A stretch of 64,000 nucleotides of DNA, taken from positions 19,265 to 83,264 of the forward strand of contig JBEKDV010000001.1 of the NCBI GenBank assembly GCA_050014175.1, written 5' to 3'. The notes beneath the pieces are model-generated. The model was not told the origin of the DNA, searched no databases, and saw nothing but the letters and a program-made list of their open reading frames with translations. The stretch is from Candidatus Solibacter sp. GTDB taxonomy: Bacteria > Acidobacteriota > Terriglobia > Bryobacterales > Bryobacteraceae. The position numbers and the translations under genes were made by a program. Of the stretch, positions 12,883-32,267 are shown one piece after another. Within the stretch, counting starts at the first letter, position 1. Every line of letters starts with the position of its first letter.

Positions 12883-13446
12883 ATGAAACACCCGAGTGAG
12901 GAAATTTTGGTATTGCACGCCGGCGGCGATCTCGGCTGGGTGGCGCGGTGGAAAACCGCCCGCCATCTGACGAATTGCCCACGCTGCGCCGCGGAAGTGG
13001 CCGCCAACGCCAGATTCCGCGAGACGCTGCCGGCGCTGAACCAGATCCCTGAAGTGCCGTGGAACCGGATCGCGGCGGAGATGCGCGCCAATATCCGCCT
13101 GGGGCTGGCCGCCGGGGAGTGCGTGCGGTCGAGCGGCCGGCCGTTGCGCGATTCCCCGCTGTTTACCGGCGCCCGCGCCACGCTGGCCCTGGCCAGCGTG
13201 CTGGCGCTGATGGTGACCGGGCTGATGCTGGAGGGCCCCGCACCGCGGATGGCCCGGCCGGATGAGCCGGTGGTACAGGCCACGGTGGATGGAATTCAGC
13301 GGCGCTGGGGCGACCAGGGATTCGGGCTGATGCACTCCGGCGCAAGCAGCGTGACCTACACGGTGGGTGCGCAAGGAACTTTGGGAGCTCGTTACACCGA
13401 CCCGGAAACGGGCAATGTAACGATGACAAAAGTATATGTGGAGTAA
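12883..13446 (+). CDS. Putative anti-sigma factor (zf-HC2-like, single TM)
   Basis: Starts 3 nt after the sigma gene. H-x3-C-x2-C (HLTNCPRC) N-terminus, then a TM segment (ATLALASVLALMVTGLML). The ATG at 12883 is chosen over the overlapping 12799. Confidence 0.6.
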   Translation: MKHPSEEILVLHAGGDLGWVARWKTARHLTNCPRCAAEVAANARFRETLPALNQIPEVPWNRIAAEMRANIRLGLAAGECVRSSGRPLRDSPLFTGARATLALASVLALMVTGLMLEGPAPRMARPDEPVVQATVDGIQRRWGDQGFGLMHSGASSVTYTVGAQGTLGARYTDPETGNVTMTKVYVE

Positions 13447-14584
13447 TGTGAAAACACTCGCGGCAGCAATGGTGCTAATGGGCGCGGCCAGCCTGGCGGC
13501 GCAGGATGCGGCGATTCCGCCCGGGGCGGTCAATATCAATCTGCCGGACAATTCGCCGCTCGCCCTGAAATCGTTCAGCATGGCGGATTCGCGCGCCACG
13601 GCGCGCGGCGCGGCTCTGGCGCTCGATCTGCACATGTCGGCGACGCTGGTCAATAATGGGTCCCGCCGCATCCACGGTGTGACCCTGCGCGTGGTGGCCC
13701 AGGAGGTGACGCTGGGCGGCAAGGGGTCCGTCACCTATCCCAGCCTCAACGTGGGACCGGGCGAGAGTTTCCAGGTGCGCATCGATATGCAGCTCATGCG
13801 TCCGTCGCAGGTTATCGGCGCGCCGCTGGTGCAGGTGGATCTGGACGGCGTGTTGTTCCAGGACCTCAGCTTTTTCGGGCCGGACCGCCTCAACTCGCGC
13901 CGCACGATGACGGCCTGCGAAATGGAAGCGCAGCGCGACCGCGAGTACTTCAAGCGCATCCTGGCGCAAGCCGGCAAGGGCGGGCTACAGCGCGAGATGT
14001 TTGAGAGCATGGCGCGGCAGAGCGAAATCTCGCAGCTCGCCGTCAGCGTGAAGCGCACCGGGCGCGCCGTGACCAGCGCCGCCACCGGGGGAGAGCACGA
14101 CGCGGAGTTTGCCTTTCTGCAATTCCCCGATTCCCCCGTGGAGCCGGTGAAGGGCTCGGCGCGGATCTCCGGCAGTGAGGCGCGCACGCCGCTCATCGAG
14201 GTGCGCAATAAGAGCAACCGGCCGGTGAAGTATGTGGAGATGGGCTGGATTGTGAGCGACCCGTCGGGCAGGCAATACATGGCCGGCTCGCTGCCATCGG
14301 CGGATTCCGACCTCATCCTGCCGCCCGGGCAGAGCGCCCGCCTGTTGCAGGAGACCACGCTGAACTTCTCCGCCAAGGGGCAGCCGGTGAACGTGCGGAA
14401 GATGGTGGGCTTCGTCAACCAGGTGGAATTCGCCGACGGCAAGATCTGGGTGCCCAACCGGCAGAACCTGGACAACGCGCATCTGCTGAATGTGCTGCCG
14501 GCCTCGGCCGAAGAGCAGCGGCTGACCGACCTATACCGCAAGCACGGCATCGACGCACTGGCGGCGGAGTTGAGCAAGTTCTAA
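13436..14584 (+). CDS. Secreted hypothetical protein co-transcribed with the sigma/anti-sigma pair
   Basis: 382 aa with a signal peptide (AAAMVLMGAASLAAQD). 11-nt overlap with the anti-sigma gene. No family recognised. Confidence 0.6.
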   Translation: MWSNVKTLAAAMVLMGAASLAAQDAAIPPGAVNINLPDNSPLALKSFSMADSRATARGAALALDLHMSATLVNNGSRRIHGVTLRVVAQEVTLGGKGSVTYPSLNVGPGESFQVRIDMQLMRPSQVIGAPLVQVDLDGVLFQDLSFFGPDRLNSRRTMTACEMEAQRDREYFKRILAQAGKGGLQREMFESMARQSEISQLAVSVKRTGRAVTSAATGGEHDAEFAFLQFPDSPVEPVKGSARISGSEARTPLIEVRNKSNRPVKYVEMGWIVSDPSGRQYMAGSLPSADSDLILPPGQSARLLQETTLNFSAKGQPVNVRKMVGFVNQVEFADGKIWVPNRQNLDNAHLLNVLPASAEEQRLTDLYRKHGIDALAAELSKF

Positions 14585-15658: not shown

Positions 15659-15736
15659 GCAAACGATCCTATCGCATACGCAGTGTCCATCTCCACGCGC
15701 GTGCGAAAGGCGCTAATCTGATCTTTCGAGTCAACT

Positions 15737-18223
15737 ATGCGAACCTGTTCCCTCTCCTGCCTCGTAGCTACGGTGTTGCTGTTGGGCGTCGCCTCTCTCG
15801 CCGCCGCGGCTTCCACCGAAATCAAGATTGGCGCCGACCGGCGCATTCGCCTCACCGAGGACTGGCGCTTCTTCAAAGGCGAAGCCGAAGGCGCCGAACA
15901 GCCGGCTTTCAGCGACGCCGCCTGGCGCGCGCTGGACCTGCCCCACGATTGGGCCATCGAGGGCCCCTTCGACCGCAAGTTCAATCCGCACGATGGCGGC
16001 CTGCCCTTTTTCGGCATCGCCTGGTATCGCAAACACTTCACCGTACCGGCCAGCGCCAAGGGCAAGTACTTCAGCGTGCAGTTCGATGGCGCCATGTCCA
16101 ACTCCACCGTCTGGATCAACGGCCAGAAGGTGGGCGGACGCCCCTACGGGTATGAGAGCTTCGCGCTCGATCTCACACCCTACATCAAGTTCGGCGAGGA
16201 GAACGTGCTGGCCGTGCGCCTGGCTCCCGAGGATCAATCTTCGCGCTGGTATCCCGGCGCCGGGATCTACCGCAACGTGTGGCTCAACGTCACCGGAGCG
16301 GTGCGCGTGGCGCAATGGGGCGCCTACATCACCACGCCTTCCGTGACCGACGCCAAAGCCACCGTGGCGATTCGCACCGAGGTGGAGAACAAGGGCACGA
16401 CGGAAGCGCACGTCACACTGGAGACCGCCATTCTCGATGCCGCCGGCAAGCAGGCCGGACGCGCCACCAACGACGTCACCATCCCCGCCGGAGGCAAGCA
16501 GAGCGTGGAGGCAAAGATCGATGTCGCCAACCCGCATCGCTGGGATCTCGACACGCCATACCTCTACAGCGCCGCCAGCACCATCAGGGAAGGCGGCCGG
16601 CAGAGCGACCGTTACGTGACGCCGTTCGGCATACGCACCATCGAATACAGCAAGGACAAGGGCTTCCTGCTCAACGGCCATGCGCACCGCTTCAACGGCG
16701 TCTGCATGCACCACGACCTGGGCGCGCTGGGCTCCGCCATCAACCGGCGGGCACTGGAGCGGCAGTTGGAGATCATGAAGTCGATGGGCGTGAACGCCAT
16801 CCGCACCAGCCACAATCCGCCCGCGCCGGAACTGCTCGAACTCACCGACCGCATGGGCCTGCTGGTGATGGACGAAGCCTTCGACATGTGGGCCATCCCC
16901 AAAGTCCCCAACGGGCTCTCCAAATACTGGAAGGAATGGTACGAGACCGACCTGCGCGAATTCGTCCGCCGCGATCGCAATCACCCGAGCGTGGTGCTCT
17001 GGAGCATCGGCAACGAGATCCCGGAGCAGGGCCGGGCCGATGGCGGGAGGCTGGCGCAACGGCTCACCGACATCGTCCACGAAGAGGACCGCACCCGCCC
17101 CACCACGGCGGCGTTCAACAACGACACGGGCGCCATTAAGAACGAACTCGCCAGCGCGGTCGATGTTCCGGGCTTCAATTACAAGCCCACCAGGTACGCG
17201 CAGATCATCAAAGATCACCCCAATTGGATCATTTTCGGTTCGGAGACTTCGTCGGGCGTCAGCTCGCGCGGCGTCTACCACCTGCCCATCGAGAAGTACG
17301 AGAAGCATCCCTCGCTGCAGCTCACCAGCTACGACGTGATCGCGCCGCCATGGGCCTACATCGCCGATGTGGAGTTCGACGCGCAGGAGAAGAATCCCGG
17401 CGTGCTGGGCGAATTCGTGTGGACGGGTTTCGACTACATCGGCGAGCCGACCCCGTACTTCAACGGGCGGGGCGCGAGCAACGACGCCGACTGGCCGTCG
17501 CGCAGCTCCTACTTCGGGATAGTGGACCTGGCCGGCTTCCCCAAGGACCGCTTCTACCTCTACCAGAGCCACTGGACCACGAAGCCGATGGTCCACCTTC
17601 TGCCGCACTGGAACTGGGCCGGGATGGAAGGCAAGCCGATTCCGGTGATGTGCTACACCAATGTTGACGAGGTCGAGTTGTTCCTCAACGGCAAATCGCT
17701 GGGCCGGAAGAAGCGCTTCTCCGAACCCGTGGAACTGCCGGTGGGCGCGGGCATCAGCGCGGACAAGAAATTCCAATCCAAGTACCGCCTGATGTGGCAG
17801 GTGCCATACGCGCCGGGCGCGTTGAAAGCCGTGGCCTACCAGGGCGGCAAGAGCGTCGCCACCACCGAAGTCAAGACCGCGGGCGCGCCGGCCCGAATCG
17901 TGCTGGCGCCTGATCGCGCGGCCATCGCGGCCGACGGCGACGACCTCTCGTTCGTCACCGTGCGCGTGGAGGACAAGGACGGCAACTTCTGCCCCACCGC
18001 CGACACGCTGGTGAAATTCAAGCTCGATGGTCCCGCCAAGATCGCCGGCGTGGACAACGGCAACCCCGCCACGGTGGAGTCTTTCCAGGCCGACAACCGC
18101 AAGGCGTTCAACGGGCTGGCGCTGCTGATCGTACGCGGCGAACATGGCAAGGCAGGGCGTGTGAAGATCACCGCCACCGCCGACGGCCTGCGGGCGGGCG
18201 AGACAACGGTCACCACGAAATAA
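15737..18223 (+). CDS. Exported glycoside hydrolase family 2 (beta-galactosidase/glucuronidase-like)
   Basis: Signal peptide; DWRFFKGEA...WRALDLPHDW sugar-binding domain; NAIRTSHNPPAPELL and WSIGNE catalytic region; 828 aa. Confidence 0.85.
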   Translation: MRTCSLSCLVATVLLLGVASLAAAASTEIKIGADRRIRLTEDWRFFKGEAEGAEQPAFSDAAWRALDLPHDWAIEGPFDRKFNPHDGGLPFFGIAWYRKHFTVPASAKGKYFSVQFDGAMSNSTVWINGQKVGGRPYGYESFALDLTPYIKFGEENVLAVRLAPEDQSSRWYPGAGIYRNVWLNVTGAVRVAQWGAYITTPSVTDAKATVAIRTEVENKGTTEAHVTLETAILDAAGKQAGRATNDVTIPAGGKQSVEAKIDVANPHRWDLDTPYLYSAASTIREGGRQSDRYVTPFGIRTIEYSKDKGFLLNGHAHRFNGVCMHHDLGALGSAINRRALERQLEIMKSMGVNAIRTSHNPPAPELLELTDRMGLLVMDEAFDMWAIPKVPNGLSKYWKEWYETDLREFVRRDRNHPSVVLWSIGNEIPEQGRADGGRLAQRLTDIVHEEDRTRPTTAAFNNDTGAIKNELASAVDVPGFNYKPTRYAQIIKDHPNWIIFGSETSSGVSSRGVYHLPIEKYEKHPSLQLTSYDVIAPPWAYIADVEFDAQEKNPGVLGEFVWTGFDYIGEPTPYFNGRGASNDADWPSRSSYFGIVDLAGFPKDRFYLYQSHWTTKPMVHLLPHWNWAGMEGKPIPVMCYTNVDEVELFLNGKSLGRKKRFSEPVELPVGAGISADKKFQSKYRLMWQVPYAPGALKAVAYQGGKSVATTEVKTAGAPARIVLAPDRAAIAADGDDLSFVTVRVEDKDGNFCPTADTLVKFKLDGPAKIAGVDNGNPATVESFQADNRKAFNGLALLIVRGEHGKAGRVKITATADGLRAGETTVTTK

Positions 18224-18447
18224 CGGTATAGGGCTCCGCGTTGTGCGATTGTGGGGCATTCCTGGCTGCGTGCCCTCCGGGCCACTTCATAGGCGCTAAA
18301 ATAAGCGCCCGGCGCGGCCCCACCCCGAATTGCTAGTGCCAAGGGCTGTGCACAGTTCCGTGGGACACCGCGTGGCAGGATTGCCCGCCACATTGCGACT
18401 ACGGGCGGGATCTATTCTAAGGGGTGCCGGACGCTGCTAGCGCTCAT

Positions 18448-22561: not shown

Positions 22562-23146
22562 TTACCCCGCCGGCAACGGGGCCGCCGGACGGCGCCGTTC
22601 CACTTCCCGCCGCAGCATCGTCAGCAGCCGCTCGATTCCGCTGTCCCAATCGGGAAACAGGTCGATGTATTGCAATTCGTGTTGGATGGTTCGCGGCACG
22701 GGGCACTCGTCCAGCCGCAGCGGAACGATATAGATCTCATCCAGCGGCACCTGCCGGGCGCAATCGAGCGCGTAGCGTAGTTCCGACTGGAATCCACCCT
22801 TTTTTCGTACCGAGTTCCCCGAAAAACAAGCTACGAAAAAATCGGAGCTTTCGATGGCGGCCTCGATCGCCCGCGGCCAGTTCTGCCCGGCCAGCAGTTT
22901 CCGCACGTCCATCCAGGGACTGAAGCCCGCGCGGTTCAGATCTTCGTAGAGCCGACTGGCGAGCACTTCATCCTCCCTGCCGTAGGCGATGAATACCTGC
23001 GGCAACGCTCGCGGTACGAAGCGGAATCCCCGCCGCGCGTCGGGGTAGAAGACGCCCAACCCGTCGATCTCCACCGTCTTCCCGGCGGCTACCCCGCGCG
23101 CCACAATTCGCGCCACTTGTTGGCAGGCGTCGCAGCATTTAGGCAC
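22562..23146 (-). CDS. TIR-domain protein with a short HU-like (helix + GLGxF) N-terminal module
   Basis: VFIAYGREDEVLASRLYEDLNRAGFSPWMDVRKLLAGQNWPRAIEAAIESSDFFVACFS...FQSELRYAL is a TIR_2-type domain. GTG at 23144-23146 is preceded by GGGAGGGAAG. The ATG at 23248 would overlap the upstream gene by 110 nt. Confidence 0.7.
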   Translation of the reverse strand: MPKCCDACQQVARIVARGVAAGKTVEIDGLGVFYPDARRGFRFVPRALPQVFIAYGREDEVLASRLYEDLNRAGFSPWMDVRKLLAGQNWPRAIEAAIESSDFFVACFSGNSVRKKGGFQSELRYALDCARQVPLDEIYIVPLRLDECPVPRTIQHELQYIDLFPDWDSGIERLLTMLRREVERRRPAAPLPAG

Positions 23147-23348
23147 GCCGCTTCCCTCCCTCCCGTTGGAAAACCAACCGGCCGTCGGCTCCCGGCCGAA
23201 AGCACCCCAAACCGGGAAGCCTCGTTTCTTTCCCGTGGCGCAGGCCATCGAGTATCTCCTGAACCATTCGATCCAGCCGGTCGGCCGCCTCGCCTCGTGT
23301 TCCGCCCGACTGACGGGCCATCTTTTTCGCGATTTCAGGCTTCTTCAT
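23139..23348 (-). CDS. Small HU/IHF-superfamily-like protein (truncated; no DNA-wrapping arm)
   Basis: 69 aa: MKKPEIAKKMARQSG.TRGEAADRLDRMVQEILDGLRHGKETRLPGLGCF follows the HU helix1-helix2-strand pattern. 8-nt overlap with the TIR gene. Confidence 0.55.
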   Translation of the reverse strand: MKKPEIAKKMARQSGGTRGEAADRLDRMVQEILDGLRHGKETRLPGLGCFRPGADGRLVFQREGGKRRA

Positions 23349-23576
23349 TCCGATTTCACTCTAGCAACCCAAAAAAGGCCGAAACCGCAAGGGCTATCCC
23401 AGTGCCGGGATAACCCTTTATTTTTGAAAGATTTCGCAAATTGAAAAAAACTGGAAACTGTTGTGAATCGCACATGAAGCGATTTTAATTGAGCGTTAAG
23501 AGACACTTCATGTGAGGTTGGATATGATAACCGCAGACGACAAGCAAGTTCGTCAACCTCCAAGGAGAACCGCACA

Positions 23577-23720
23577 ATGAAGAAACTGTTGACTTTGATG
23601 CTCGGCATGGCGTTCGTTTTCACGACCGTGGCCGTAACCTTCGGCCAGGACACCACCAAGAAGGAAGACACAGGCAAGAAGAAGGCCAAGAAGAAGAAGG
23701 CCGACACCACCAAGAGCTAA
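23577..23720 (+). CDS. Secreted Lys-rich micropeptide precursor (47 aa)
   Basis: AAGGAG RBS about 9 nt upstream. MKKLLTLMLGMAFVFTTVAVTFG / QDTTKKEDTGKKKAKKKKADTTKS. Own intrinsic terminator. A paralogue lies about 400 bp downstream. Too short for the ORF track. Confidence 0.6.
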   Translation: MKKLLTLMLGMAFVFTTVAVTFGQDTTKKEDTGKKKAKKKKADTTKS

Positions 23721-23737
23721 GCTTTCCTACGTCACTT

Positions 23738-23790
23738 TGCTGGCAAGCCGCGTAGCTCCTGCTGCGCGGCCATCCAGCATGTTTTTTCTC
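23738..23790 (+). terminator. Rho-independent terminator after the first micropeptide gene
   Basis: tgctggcaagccgcg ... cgcggccatccagca stem followed by tgttttttct. Confidence 0.65.
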
Positions 23791-23971
23791 CCTCCTCCGT
23801 ACCAACCTCCCCACAATCCAGTCGCTCTGACAAGCTGTTGATTTGCCTTTGTTTTGCCTTTGAGTTGTAAGTGAACCTACTTTAACTGTGCGTTAAGGGA
23901 TCCTTCACATCGGGTTCGCTATGATGTTTTTGAAGACGCCCAAACGTCCACCAATTCCAGGAGATATCACC

Positions 23972-24118
23972 ATGAAAAAACTGATGACTTTGATGCTCGG
24001 CCTGTCGCTCGCCCTCGGCAGCGTAGCCGTTGCTTTCTCGCAGGACACGACTTCCACCAAGAAGACCAGCAAGAAGAAGGCGCCCAAGAAGAAGAAGGGC
24101 GACACCACCAAGAGCTAA
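23972..24118 (+). CDS. Secreted Lys-rich micropeptide precursor (48 aa), paralogue of 23577-23720
   Basis: AGGAG RBS. MKKLMTLMLGLSLALGSVAVAFS / QDTTSTKKTSKKKAPKKKKGDTTKS. Same QDTT...DTTKS ends and the same 3-prime flank (agctaagctttcc). Confidence 0.6.
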   Translation: MKKLMTLMLGLSLALGSVAVAFSQDTTSTKKTSKKKAPKKKKGDTTKS

Positions 24119-27576: not shown

Positions 27577-27612
27577 AAACCCGCACCGGTCCCGGTGCGG
27601 GTTTTGCATTTT
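27577..27612 (+). terminator. Strong intrinsic-terminator-like hairpin immediately upstream of the RBS of the 27625 gene
   Basis: aaacccgcaccgg-tc-ccggtgcgggttt followed by tgcatttt, then GGAGGG-N5-ATG. Confidence 0.6.
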
Positions 27613-27624
27613 CCGGAGGGTAGG

Positions 27625-28890
27625 ATGATTTCCCGTTCGTTTCTTGCGGCTGTGTGCCTGGCTACGTCGTCGTTCGCCGCCCCGCCGCTCACCACTATTC
27701 AGGACGTGCTGTACAAAGCCGACGGCACGCCTTTCAATGGCACATTAACCATCAGTTGGACCAGTTTTGAAGCGATCGACCGTTCGGCGATCGAACAGCA
27801 GACCACAACCGTTACCGTAGTGAACGGCAACCTGCAAGTGCAACTGGTGCCGACTACCACCGCAACGCCGATCACCTATTACACCGTGGTCTATAACAGC
27901 GATGGAATGGTCCAGTTTCAAGAGACCTGGTCCGTGCCTTCCAGCATGCAGCCACTGCGCGTGCGTGACGTGAGGGTCGCAACCACGAATACGGCGGGGG
28001 CGGATACCACCTCGCCCACAGTGGAGGAGTCCGACATCGTGGGCCTGATCAGCGACTTGGGCGCGCGTCCTTTGAAGGGCCCAGCATATGCGGTGGGACG
28101 GGTGGCGTTGGTAGATTCCACCGGCGCCCTGGTGAGCGTGACCGGCGCCTCCACCGACTGCGTCCACGTGGATGGCACGTCGGGACCATGCGGCGGCACG
28201 CAGCCGGGTTTCCTCGATGGCGACACGCCGGCGGGGGTGGTGGATGGCGCTAATACCGCGTTCACGCTGTCCGCCGTACCGAATCCCGCGGCCAGCCTGA
28301 CGGTTTATCGCAACGGCGTGTTGCAGCAGCCGGGACAGGACTTCACCCTGTCCGGCAACCAGATTCAATTCGTAACGGCGTCGGCGCCGCAGCCAGGGGA
28401 CACCCTGGTGGCCAGTTACCGGCTGACGGGGAGCACGGATGACACGCCGCAGCTCTTTCCCAATCCGCAGGTGCTGTGCAGCGGGCTCGGCGCGGCCACC
28501 AATTCGAGCACCCTGGCGAGCGTGGGCACCTGCACCATCCCCGCCAGCCTTCTGGCCGCCGGAGACCGCCTGGAGATCCGCTTCGACCTCGACCATACCG
28601 GTGCGGCGGGCGGCTTCAATTTCGAAGTGCAATGGGGCGCCACCACGGTGCTGTCGCGCAACGCTTCGCCGGTGGACGCGCAGGCCACGGGCCGGGCGGA
28701 CGCCGCACTGACGGCGGCGGGCGCGCAGTTGAGCCACCAATCGTGGGGCACCGCGCTCCCCTTTGCGGCCGGCGTGGGCACAGCCACGGACGCCTACACG
28801 GCCGGCATCACGGTGGTTTTCCAGGCGTCGACGGTGCTGCCGGTGGAGACGGTGACCCTGAGGAATTTCACTGTGGTGCGTTTTCCGTAG
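27625..28890 (+). CDS. Secreted hypothetical protein with tail-fibre-like sequence character
   Basis: GGAGGG RBS and signal peptide MISRSFLAAVCLATSSFA. Thr/Gly/Ala-rich beta-type sequence. No enzymatic motif. Confidence 0.6.
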   Translation: MISRSFLAAVCLATSSFAAPPLTTIQDVLYKADGTPFNGTLTISWTSFEAIDRSAIEQQTTTVTVVNGNLQVQLVPTTTATPITYYTVVYNSDGMVQFQETWSVPSSMQPLRVRDVRVATTNTAGADTTSPTVEESDIVGLISDLGARPLKGPAYAVGRVALVDSTGALVSVTGASTDCVHVDGTSGPCGGTQPGFLDGDTPAGVVDGANTAFTLSAVPNPAASLTVYRNGVLQQPGQDFTLSGNQIQFVTASAPQPGDTLVASYRLTGSTDDTPQLFPNPQVLCSGLGAATNSSTLASVGTCTIPASLLAAGDRLEIRFDLDHTGAAGGFNFEVQWGATTVLSRNASPVDAQATGRADAALTAAGAQLSHQSWGTALPFAAGVGTATDAYTAGITVVFQASTVLPVETVTLRNFTVVRFP

Positions 28891-29709: not shown

Positions 29710-31302
29710 CTAGCGATGGAACGCATCCCCGGGCCGCCAATCCGGCAGCTTATCCTGATTGGCGATGTCTTTGCCCAGCAGGAAACCGTACTCGGCGGCC
29801 TGCGCTAACGCCGTGAAATCCCAATCGCTCTGAAACTCGTCCGAGGGCTGGTGGTAATGCTTGCTGTTGTACTCCTGGTAGGCCTGCTCCCCGAAACCGG
29901 CGGGCTTGCCCACGAATTCGGTGGCGTGCCCGATGCTGAACGCCGGAATCCCCGCGTGGGCCAGCGAAAAATGGTCCGAGCGGAAGTAGTGCCCGGCTTC
30001 GGGCTGCGCGTCCACCGCGATCCCCAGGTCGAGTCGCTTCGCAATCTGCTGCGCCAGCGGATAGATGTTGGTCCGCTCGGCGCCTGTGATCACCACATTG
30101 GCCGCGCGCCCCCAGGGATAAAGCGCGTCGTAGTTCAGATCCACCGCCGTCTTCGCCAGGGGAACCAGCGGATGCGCCGCGTAGTATTCCGATCCCCTCA
30201 GCCCGCCTTCCTCGGCTGTCACCGAAAGGAACAGCACGCTGCGCCTGGGCTTCTGCGCGAGGGTGCCCCACATGCGCGCCACCTCCAGGAGGATGCCGCA
30301 CCCGGTGGCGTTATCGATCGCGCCGTTATAAATGGCATCGGCCGCCACCGGCGTGCCAATCCCCAAATGATCCCAGTGCGCGCTATAGACGATGTACTCG
30401 TCCTTCAGTTTCGGATCGCTGCCCGGTATCACGGCCGCCACGTTGCGCGTCTCCAGATCGCGGACCTTCGCCGGGAGGTGGCCGCGCACCTGGATTCCCA
30501 GCTCGATCGGCCGGAAGTCCGGCCGATCGCTAGATTGCAGCAGGTCGTCGAGATTCCTGCCCGCCAGCGCCAGGAACTTCTCGCCGGCCGCGCGCGTGAT
30601 CCAGCCCTGCAACGAAAGCGCCTTCGCCCCGGGCTCCAGTTTCACGAACGGGGCTTCGCGCCCCCAGGAGTTGCGCACCACCTCCCACGGGTAGCTGGCC
30701 GTCTCCGTGGTGTGGATGATGATGCAGCCCTTGGCGCCGCGCCGCAGCGCTTCCTCGTACTTGTAGACCCAGCGCCCGTAATAGGTGAGCGCCCGCCCGT
30801 CGAAGAACTTCGGATCGGTCGACGGCGGTTCATTGGTGAACATGATGAGCACCTTGCCGGTCACGTCGAGGCCCTTGTAGTCATCCCATTTGAATTCCGG
30901 CGCCGTGATCCCGTGCCCTACGAACACGGCGTCGCCTTCGAAGCGCGTATCCGGGAGCTGGGTCTGGCTGACGCCGACGAAATCGTCGCCCCAGCGGAAG
31001 TCCAGCGCCTTGCCCCCCGCCGCGGCGCTCAAGGTGGCGCCCGGTTGGGTCTCGATGCCCACCAGGGGAACCTTTTGAAAATATGTGCCGTTTTCGCCCG
31101 CCGGTTTGGCGCCCGCCAGCGCGAGTTGGGTGGCGATATACTCGGCTGCGATATCGCCGCCGCGCGTTCCCGTGCCCCGGCCCTCCAGCAGATCGCTCGA
31201 TAGAAATCGTGTGTGCTCCCGAATGCGTTCCGCGGAAATGCCGGCGTCCTGCGCCAGAACCGGCACAACGGCAATCACCAGTAACCCGATGTATTTGGGC
31301 AT
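29710..31302 (-). CDS. Exported M28-family aminopeptidase with PA domain
   Basis: Signal peptide, NVAAVIPG, YSAHWDHLG, NGAIDNATG and FLSVTAEEGGLRGSEYY zinc-ligand motifs. Confidence 0.85.
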   Translation of the reverse strand: MPKYIGLLVIAVVPVLAQDAGISAERIREHTRFLSSDLLEGRGTGTRGGDIAAEYIATQLALAGAKPAGENGTYFQKVPLVGIETQPGATLSAAAGGKALDFRWGDDFVGVSQTQLPDTRFEGDAVFVGHGITAPEFKWDDYKGLDVTGKVLIMFTNEPPSTDPKFFDGRALTYYGRWVYKYEEALRRGAKGCIIIHTTETASYPWEVVRNSWGREAPFVKLEPGAKALSLQGWITRAAGEKFLALAGRNLDDLLQSSDRPDFRPIELGIQVRGHLPAKVRDLETRNVAAVIPGSDPKLKDEYIVYSAHWDHLGIGTPVAADAIYNGAIDNATGCGILLEVARMWGTLAQKPRRSVLFLSVTAEEGGLRGSEYYAAHPLVPLAKTAVDLNYDALYPWGRAANVVITGAERTNIYPLAQQIAKRLDLGIAVDAQPEAGHYFRSDHFSLAHAGIPAFSIGHATEFVGKPAGFGEQAYQEYNSKHYHQPSDEFQSDWDFTALAQAAEYGFLLGKDIANQDKLPDWRPGDAFHR

Positions 31303-31361
31303 GATTGGTTTGGTATCCTAAAATTAAACCGTATCACAGACATCACCGGGTAAATTCTCCC

Positions 31362-32267
31362 ATGCCGGACCGGACCCTTAGCCATTCGCGCGCCCTGGAA
31401 GCCGAAAGCATTCACATCCTTCGCGAGGTGGCTGCCGAATTCGAGCGGCCGGTGATGCTCTACTCCATCGGCAAGGACTCCTCGGTCATGGTCCGCCTGG
31501 CGCAGAAGGCATTTCACCCCGGCCCCATCCCCTTCCCCCTGCTGCACATCGATACCACCTACAAATTCCAGGAGATGATCGAGTTCCGCGACCGCTTCTG
31601 CGCGGAAATCGGCGTCAAACTGATCGTCCACACCAATCGACAGGCCATCGACGAGGGCGCCAGCCCCTTCCGCCTGGGAACGCAGAAGTGCTGCGGTCTG
31701 CTCAAAACACGCGCCCTGCTCGACGCCCTCGGCGCCGGCAACTTCGACGCGGCATTCGGGGGCGCCCGCCGCGACGAAGAGAAATCGCGCGCCAAGGAGC
31801 GCGTCTACAGCTTCCGCGACGCCTTCGGACAGTGGGACCCCAAGAACCAGCGCCCCGAATTGTGGAGCCTCTACAACAGCCGCCTCGATAAAGGCGAGAG
31901 CATCCGCGTCTTTCCGCTCTCCAACTGGACGGAACTCGACGTCTGGCACTACATCCACCTGGAGAACATCCCCATCGTGCCGCTCTACTTCGCCAAACCG
32001 CGCCCCATGGTAGTGCGCGGAGGCGCCCTGATCCCGTTGGAACATAACATGCCGCTCTTGCCCGGCGAAGCGCCCCAAATGGTGATGTGCCGCATGCGCT
32101 CGCTGGGCTGCACCTATTGCACCGGCGCCATACGCTCCGCGGCCGACACGCTGCCCAAAATCATCGAGGAGATGATCCAGTTCCGGCGCAGCGAACGCGA
32201 GAACCGCGTCATCGACCACGACCAGGAAGGCTCCATGGAAATCAAAAAGCGCGAGGGCTATTTCTAA
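31362..32267 (+). CDS. cysD: Sulfate adenylyltransferase subunit 2
   Basis: [32 protein letters not shown] (PAPS-reductase-fold PP-loop) ... KKREGYF C-terminus. Confidence 0.9.

Follow-up and report, generated by a model that had tools for sequence, protein, structure and literature searches.

A translationally coupled pair of an armless HU-fold protein and a TIR protein with half an HU module, conserved in Acidobacteriota

Introduction

To our knowledge, bacterial TIR enzymes are known almost exclusively from sporadic, mobile anti-phage systems or as virulence factors, and for each system the central question is how the enzyme stays off and how it gets switched on. Here we analyze a gene pair in a 64,000-nucleotide stretch of a Candidatus Solibacter sp. 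genome (Acidobacteriota; GenBank assembly GCA_050014175.1, contig JBEKDV010000001.1, positions 19,265 to 83,264; hereafter “the window”, on which all positions are counted). A gene for a 69-aa HU-like protein (HU69) overlaps the start of a gene for a TIR-domain protein that begins with a second, partial HU-like module (HU½-TIR). An original prediction, made from the sequence alone, had pointed to this pair as a possible antiphage or envelope-related system.

Several described systems resemble parts of this arrangement. In SPARTA, a TIR domain is joined to a nucleic-acid-recognising partner encoded by an adjacent gene, and the enzyme is activated by oligomerisation. In the integration host factor (IHF), two paralogous HU-fold chains, IHFα and IHFβ, form one DNA-binding body. 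Short HU domains with a truncated β-hairpin arm were described for the HU-CCDC81 and HU-HIG clades, in the first of which two HU copies act as one dimeric unit (Burroughs et al., 2017, PMC5499826). In bacterial HU-CCDC81 proteins both copies lie in one chain, followed by a disordered segment, a transmembrane segment and SPOR/LysM, while HU-HIG proteins carry winged helix-turn-helix, immunoglobulin (Ig) or Gly-rich tails and lack conserved operons (PMC5499826). TIR is mentioned nowhere in the main text of that paper, and our literature searches, full text included, turned up neither a paper that connects HU-like proteins with TIR domains nor one on TIR proteins of Acidobacteria. The pairing of a split HU fold with a TIR domain is an undescribed way of packaging a TIR enzyme.

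Results and Discussion

Two HU-like modules and one TIR domain

The features of the pair are listed below with the evidence on which each rests, which includes AlphaFold2 (AF2) models and the ratio of non-synonymous to synonymous substitutions (dN/dS).

23139..23348, minus strand: HU69, a 69-aa armless HU-fold protein (Pfam, AF2, Foldseek, homologues, dN/dS)
23358..23366, minus strand: TGCTAGAGT, an extended -10-like element 9 nt upstream of the HU69 ATG (conservation of TGnTAnnnT)
23139..23160, minus strand: coupling junction, with GGGAGGGAAG at 23160-23151, GTG at 23146-23144 and the HU69 TAA at 23141-23139 (read in the sequence)
22562..23146, minus strand: HU½-TIR, a 194-aa protein with a GTG start (sequence, database gene call, TIR_2, dN/dS)
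23009..23134, minus strand: half-HU module of the TIR protein, residues ~5-46, one helix and three strands (hhalign, HU_rel, AF2, invariant residues)
22592..22999, minus strand: TIR domain, residues ~50-185 (Pfam, Foldseek, PDB profile search)
22781..22783, minus strand: codon of Glu122, the presumed catalytic glutamate, in the motif GGFQSE (alignments)

The HU69 open reading frame (ORF) runs on the minus strand from an ATG at 23348 through 69 codons to a TAA stop at 23141-23139. Its product is matched above threshold by the Pfam profile Bac_DNA_binding (PF00216; 27.2 bits vs. a cut-off of 22.4), a match that covers only profile positions 1-51 of 90, with nothing aligned to positions 52-90. 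Further matches, to HU-CCDC81_bac_2 (PF18175; 25.2 bits, under the family cut-off of 35), HU-HIG (PF18291) and NCBIfam HU_rel (TIGR01201), were all sub-threshold. The AF2 monomer model, built from an alignment of 34 sequences, has helices at residues 3-14 and 18-37 and strands at 42-44, 48-52 and 58-62, i.e., an α1-α2-β1-β2-β3 topology. From model and sequence together, the DNA-wrapping β-arm is cut down to a short β2-β3 turn (RPGADGR) and the protein stops 7 residues past β3, without the C-terminal α3 helix. The long β-ribbon arm with an intercalating proline of HU/IHF proteins is absent from HU69. When this model was compared to the PDB with Foldseek, the best 50 matches were all HU/IHF chains, with a TM-score (template modelling score) of about 0.6.

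More than 130 homologues of HU69 were collected, down to 60% identity, and nearly all are exactly 69 aa long; the cluster entries come only from metagenome-assembled genomes (MAGs) and are titled “HU family DNA-binding protein” or “hypothetical protein”. The architecture of the bacterial HU-CCDC81 clade (PF18174/PF18175) was not found, as HU69 has 69 aa and no further domain, and the second HU unit sits on the TIR protein. By threshold and by fold, HU69 is a member of the HU/IHF superfamily and represents a complete but armless HU domain, in line with the original prediction of an HU-like protein lacking the wrapping arm. Its net charge, counted from the residues, is about +8, which would be compatible with nucleic-acid binding.

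The TIR protein is identical over its whole length to a 194-aa database gene call (P0001, 100% identity), and the GTG start at 23146 proposed earlier is the one used by gene calls and homologues. A 228-aa version of the ORF, opening at an ATG at 23248, was set aside as an artefact, the added residues not being conserved. The second HU-like half-module proposed for the N-terminus of this protein was recovered by several comparisons: alignment of the HU69 family to the first 49 residues of the TIR family with hhalign gave a local probability of 88% (E 2.9e-6), pairing HU69 residues 27-62 with TIR protein residues 10-45; the hidden Markov model of HU69 matched TIR ORFs directly in three loci; and NCBIfam HU_rel matched residues 9-35 (E 0.006). 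The AF2 model of the TIR protein has a helix at residues 6-20 and strands at 25-27, 31-36 and 40-45, with a predicted local distance difference test score (pLDDT) of 73-90 across the module and 79 overall. The N-terminal module is the equivalent of HU α2-β1-β2-β3, lacks α1, and is homologous to HU69. Within it, residues E26-I27-D28-G29-L30-G31 and F33 are invariant among the aligned homologues.

A cluster of cysteines, CCDxC, lies at the extreme N-terminus of the TIR protein (residues 4-8; 23123-23137, minus strand). C5 and C8 are at least 90% conserved in close relatives, and the cluster is absent from distant members.

The remainder of the protein is a TIR domain, as had been proposed: Pfam TIR_2 (PF13676) matches residues 51-175 with an E-value of 2e-27 (96.5 bits vs. 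a cut-off of 28). In the Foldseek comparison the best matches were the TIR domains of SPARTA TIR-APAZ and SARM1 (E about 1e-7), with the TIRs of AbTir and MyD88 also recovered, and a profile search of the PDB returned the same families, SPARTA and SARM1 (SPARTA TIR-APAZ at E 6e-7). Glu122, the residue whose sequence context had been highlighted earlier, is invariant in 25/25 aligned homologues and retained in ten distant members listed with an intact motif. It aligns with the glutamate of “GVLKEL” in CrtSPARTA TIR-APAZ, residue 77 by counting on the alignment, which we take to be the catalytic glutamate of that enzyme; Glu122 is thus the presumed catalytic residue here, on the strength of this alignment.

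Conservation is high across the TIR alignment, with a mean column identity of 79%. Relatives of the TIR protein number in the thousands; the closest 120 are all 175-255 aa long and carry the N-terminal module, and module-bearing members are all about 190-250 aa. Other architectures built on the half-HU module were sought among N-terminally extended representatives (match starting from profile positions 21-39) and rejected: these carry unrelated domains instead, namely trypsin, TPR, extra TIR copies, or a ~95-aa domain of no known family.

Conservation and distribution of the pair

The two genes overlap by 8 nt, from the GTG at 23146 to the end of the HU69 TAA at 23139, with the ribosome-binding site GGGAGGGAAG ahead of the GTG, all as originally read. 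This junction is itself conserved: in 71/84 loci an in-frame start opens exactly 8 nt short of where the HU stop ends (RTGnnTRA), and 5 more have a 4-nt RTGA overlap, so that the overlap is kept in 76/84 overall. In 83/85 loci the TIR gene directly follows the HU69 gene, the other two being cut by a contig end, and the two genes are never unlinked in the 83/83 testable loci. Even in relatives at 50% identity or less (P0246, P0264), an uncalled HU-like ORF still overlaps the TIR start.

No natural HU-TIR fusion was found among database entries, where longer entries proved to be mis-called starts or frameshifted reads. The alternative that the pair is a frameshifted fusion or a split pseudogene was rejected, given that HU69 is fixed at 69 aa, the longer entries are artefactual and dN/dS is low for both genes; likewise a -1 frameshift that would make a fusion across the overlap, as no slippery heptamer is conserved at the junction. 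One 200-aa representative protein (P0339) reads as an apparent HU69-TIR read-through, but changes frame twice, past HU α2 and close to the TIR Glu motif, and is most likely an assembly or indel artefact rather than a natural fusion.

Evolutionarily, comparison to the five closest relatives gave dN/dS values of 0.05-0.15 (HU69) and 0.07-0.13 (TIR gene), which climb to about 0.3 in more distant comparisons with saturated dS. Both genes are under strong purifying selection. Set beside the outcomes that the original prediction had named as speaking against it, both N-terminal modules have HU-fold support, orthologous genes are neither fused nor unlinked, and the TIR glutamate is invariant.

Upstream of HU69, the pattern TGnTAnnnT occurs 7-10 nt ahead of the ATG in 44/48 distinct upstream sequences, and no Shine-Dalgarno sequence is present between TGCTAGAGT and the ATG in the window. 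The arrangement suggests that the HU69 mRNA may be leaderless or near-leaderless. A GC-rich palindromic stretch is often seen 25-45 nt upstream.

To evaluate how widely the pair occurs, we scanned one genome per species and recovered 527 HU-TIR loci. Among the best 80 of these 527, 79 were labelled Acidobacteriota, mostly Bryobacterales/Solibacteraceae MAGs, and the one exception was an 8.7-kb contig labelled Verrucomicrobiia, which is probably mis-binned. The pair family was not found in 72,556 plasmids or in 2.9 million IMG/VR viral contigs. Taken together, the pair appears to be a chromosomal two-gene operon that is inherited vertically and has so far been seen in Acidobacteriota (Bryobacterales-type MAGs).

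Genomic neighbourhood

In the window the pair is flanked by housekeeping genes (GalU, LolA-like, MsbA-like, acyltransferase and peptidase). The flanks vary by genus, and elsewhere include PAP2, galactokinase, NADH dehydrogenase subunits or a sugar transferase. No defence genes flank the pair in the window, where the single PADLOC match is a partial one on the ABC transporter gene. Mobile or island-borne defence systems would be recognised by a patchy distribution, mobile carriage and defence neighbours, none of which is seen for this pair. The antiphage leaning of the original prediction thus finds no support in genomic context, given the lack of plasmid or viral copies and of defence flanks, and the lineage-wide purifying selection.

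Downstream, 13 nt past the TIR stop (22562) and on the same strand, starts a gene for a polytopic membrane protein of 498 aa (22548-21052, minus strand) with an N-terminal DEGYH motif as in GT-C glycosyltransferases. The spacing and strand reported earlier were correct; the accompanying “GT39-like” label was left unverified, as searches of Pfam, NCBIfam and PDB sequences at permissive thresholds returned no match. This gene adjoins the TIR gene in only 12/86 loci, those of the closest relatives and one other (L037), where it lies on the opposite strand. On that count we rejected a functional link between the pair and the GT-C-like protein, and with it the envelope-related role that had been suggested through this neighbour.

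The upstream side is different. The drop in GC noted earlier in the flanking DNA was borne out (0.40-0.52 over 23300-24100 vs. 0.60-0.70 around it), with no Rfam match of note in it, and this low-GC flank is where the pair's conserved neighbour lies, in the form of one or more divergent genes for small secreted lysine-rich peptides, together with a conserved non-coding element:

23577..23720, plus strand: lysine-rich peptide gene 1, 47 aa, divergent from HU69 (neighbour survey)
23972..24118, plus strand: lysine-rich peptide gene 2, a tandem paralogue with the family-consistent start MKKLMTLMLG (ORF list and neighbour survey)
23474..23514, minus strand: 41-bp element, CACATGAA-N6-CTTAA-N5-AATTAAAATC-N2-TTCAT(GTG) (motif scan of loci)

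The product of peptide gene 1 has a signal-peptide-like start (MKKLLTLMLG...TFGQD) followed by a K/T-rich tail, which conforms to the plan of the whole family: ~50 aa, a signal-peptide-like start, a small-residue cleavage-type motif before Q-D/E, and a lysine/threonine-rich tail of ~25 aa, with cleavage of the FxQ|D type predicted to leave Q as the first residue of the mature peptide. In 71/83 loci HU69 has one or more of these genes within 2.5 kb and, in the reverse direction, HU-TIR adjoins 26/35 peptide loci. There are one to three peptide genes per locus, with two or three tandem copies in 19/83. In two loci (L049, L078) the peptide gene has been relocated to just downstream of the TIR gene, and in others the whole HU-TIR-peptide trio is duplicated within one contig (L009/L076; L097/L098); one contig carries two complete trios that have diverged. 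The peptide genes evolve faster than HU and TIR (dN/dS 0.35-0.7). This family of small, secreted, lysine-rich peptides, so far unannotated and marked by a very conserved promoter element, comprises at least 1975 clusters at 90% identity; none is informatively named, and the few labelled taxa are Acidobacteriota.

The 41-bp element consists of an 8-bp inverted repeat around an A/T tract, with the repeats about 35 bp apart centre to centre, and sits upstream of the -10 box of the peptide promoter (TATGAT, 23523-23528). It has 106 matches in 1.24 Mb of loci (101/125 sequences) and a single one in the 64-kb window. Wherever its position was inspected, the element stands upstream of a peptide gene, whether or not that gene is linked to HU-TIR, and it is missing from 11/12 HU-TIR loci scored as peptide-less. 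Since it tracks the peptide gene in this way, the element belongs to the peptide promoter, and is likely a UP element or an operator of a strong promoter.

Some smaller observations concern the same region. The 5' leader of the peptide gene (23529-23576, plus strand) has a conserved GACGA-loop-TCGTC stem near the expected transcription start, followed by AAGGAGA; a few loci show compensatory-looking changes (e.g., GACGACC...GGTCGC), and the stem may be a 5' stabilising hairpin. In one locus (L011, 354-4653, minus strand) and about 31 others, roughly a third, genes for a DUF5666/CusF-like periplasmic protein and a ~1028-aa CarboxypepD_reg/TonB-dependent-receptor-like outer-membrane barrel follow the peptide genes on the same strand, so that the peptide gene may head an envelope operon there.

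Elsewhere in the window, several long ORFs without a Pfam family at E <= 1e-5 lie at 15731-18259 (minus strand), 27595-28890 (plus strand), 13436-14584 (plus strand) and 31275-32219 (minus strand). A 431-aa ORF among them has a signal-peptide-like start. Several overlap opposite-strand ORFs of near-equal length in this high-GC window, and some may thus not be genes.

A split HU fold as a proposed tether and gate

We tentatively propose, at a rough probability of 45%, that the two proteins form a split HU-fold heteromer that tethers and gates a TIR NADase, i.e., an enzyme cleaving nicotinamide adenine dinucleotide (NAD+). Translational coupling would deliver the HU69 and TIR chains together, and HU69 and the half-HU module would then pair as an IHF-like heterodimer in which HU69 supplies the missing helix. 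The basic, armless HU body would hold the TIR domain on nucleic acid, or keep it inactive in a stoichiometric complex, and NAD+ cleavage would fire once several complexes cluster. Clustering would activate the enzyme because TIR NADases generally need self-association, a requirement with which one of the Foldseek matches in the PDB agrees by its title, “Tetramerized activation of MapSPARTA bound with NAD+”.

Several points weigh against this proposal. The AF2 model of HU69 is only moderately confident (pLDDT 62), and a permutation test found no extra similarity between cognate HU69 and half-HU sequences (p 0.42), in a noisy extraction where at least one “HU” segment was an out-of-frame translation. 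A conserved glutamate is no proof of catalysis, and the heterodimer, the nucleic-acid binding and the NADase activity are all things that we infer. A tether and gate of this kind leaves the tight linkage to the peptide genes unexplained. Finally, armless HU domains may be unable to bind DNA, and there are HU-HIG versions whose DNA site is taken up by an Ig domain (Burroughs et al., 2017, PMC5499826).

As for the role of such a gated TIR enzyme, the vertical, lineage-wide distribution argues for a fixed function throughout the lineage. Most likely the pair, tied to the nucleoid, generates a signal or acts as an NAD+ switch in stress or of the abortive-infection type, and it is less likely a mobile defence cassette. 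The control architecture is unreported for TIR domains, with the partner HU fold split across two translationally coupled genes, and vertical descent together with strong purifying selection appears to have fixed it in a major but poorly studied group of soil bacteria. If the HU heterodimer does tether or gate the enzyme, TIR domains would gain a new activation logic and the HU fold a new job outside chromatin, and this would possibly be the first lineage-wide, non-mobile role of a bacterial catalytic TIR.

It is tempting to go further and speculate that the pair is a core device of Bryobacterales rather than an immune one, although we consider this improbable. The armless HU heterodimer would set a catalytically competent TIR domain on the nucleoid, where it would make or consume a NAD- or nucleic-acid-derived signal, and would be linked in function to the abundant polycationic peptide secreted by the cell, as a three-part module whose members are duplicated and rearranged together. 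Were this true, it would give a bacterial catalytic TIR a housekeeping role and make the HU fold a newly used split adaptor.

Alternative explanations

The linkage to the peptide genes could instead mean that the pair regulates them, or the envelope, with HU69 binding and bending the 41-bp element together with its TIR partner or sensor, and with the TIR serving as a signalling or scaffold domain. The linkage indeed runs both ways (71/83 HU-TIR loci and 26/35 peptide loci), the peptide gene stays adjacent when relocated, whole trios are duplicated, and the shared intergenic region holds the strongly conserved inverted-repeat/A-T element, whose span of ~35 bp is roughly what an IHF/HU dimer covers. 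However, this element travels with the peptide gene even where HU-TIR is absent, and may thus simply serve the peptide gene as promoter or UP element; the linkage is missing from about 15% of HU-TIR loci and from about 25% of peptide loci; an invariant catalytic-type Glu favours an enzyme over a scaffold; and HU69 lacks the arms that confer sequence-specific bending on IHF. We therefore regard a regulatory module as doubtful.

A toxin-antitoxin-like module seems equally unlikely. In this scheme HU69 would be an antitoxin and autorepressor that docks on the half-HU module of a TIR NADase toxin, and loss of a labile HU69 would free the toxin. Such an organization would fit a small, basic, DNA-binding-fold gene that comes first, shares 8 or 4 nt with a larger enzyme gene and is always inherited together with it, as well as a TIR fold that is nearest to NAD-depleting effectors and a homologous half-module that offers a ready docking surface. 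Toxin-antitoxin modules are, however, usually patchy and mobile in distribution, whereas this family is order-wide, is under strong purifying selection and was found neither on plasmids nor in viral contigs. Immediately ahead of HU69 only the -10-like box is conserved, with no palindromic operator, and no HU-fold antitoxin family is known to us.

Most defence genes are scattered in distribution and evolve fast, whereas this pair looks vertically distributed and is highly conserved in sequence. A stand-alone antiphage system, with phage DNA or a phage protein recognised by the HU module and cell death or a signal produced by the TIR domain, is thus very unlikely: neither protein has a full-length match to any of 5027 PADLOC models (HU69 has none at all), the window offers housekeeping flanks and no defence neighbours, and no Thoeris ThsA, pAgo or cyclase partner occurs in the inspected neighbourhoods, which outweighs the domain-level similarity of the TIR to SPARTA, Thoeris and retron TIR effectors, the use of HU/IHF proteins by mobile elements, and the proposal that HU clades act in biological conflicts (PMC5499826).

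Comparison with described systems

The original prediction held that the pair is not one of the named TIR systems, and comparison with SPARTA and Thoeris bears this out. SPARTA TIR-APAZ is the best structural and sequence match to the TIR domain (PADLOC Aga_TIR-PNTD, E 7e-22), with the glutamates aligned, and shares the principle of a TIR joined to a nucleic-acid-recognising partner from an adjacent gene and activated by oligomerisation. In contrast to SPARTA, the TIR protein of the pair lacks APAZ and ends after the TIR domain at 194 aa, the PADLOC match being confined to profile positions 5-134 of 430. No Argonaute gene is present in the inspected loci, where the partner is the 69-aa HU-fold protein, and SPARTA genes are sporadic defence genes whereas the HU-TIR pair is conserved across its lineage.

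The TIRs of Thoeris ThsB and AbTir are likewise small TIR_2-type proteins with a conserved Glu, which is reflected in a weak PADLOC match to ThsB (E 3e-4) and weak NCBIfam domain matches. Here, however, no ThsA effector is adjacent and no SIR2, Macro or SLOG gene was found in the five loci L001-L005 or in the window; and, unlike those TIRs, the TIR protein carries an HU half-module and has an obligatory HU partner gene. Type II toxin-antitoxin systems with a NAD-targeting toxin offer a similar layout, with a small DNA-binding-fold gene preceding and overlapping (76/84 loci) the gene of a possible NAD+-depleting enzyme, yet differ from a pair with a vertical, order-wide distribution, no plasmid or phage copies found and an HU-fold first gene.

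On the HU side, IHFα/IHFβ provides the model for the presumed pairing, as two paralogous HU-fold chains in one DNA-binding body, and IHF is among the Foldseek matches of HU69; the IHF subunits, however, have their full length, including long arms and the C-terminal helix, but no enzyme domain. With the HU-CCDC81 and HU-HIG clades HU69 shares its short length and truncated arm, at sub-threshold matches only. What sets the pair apart from these clades is that its HU units are split over two genes, that the second unit lacks α1, and that the domain fused to it is a TIR.

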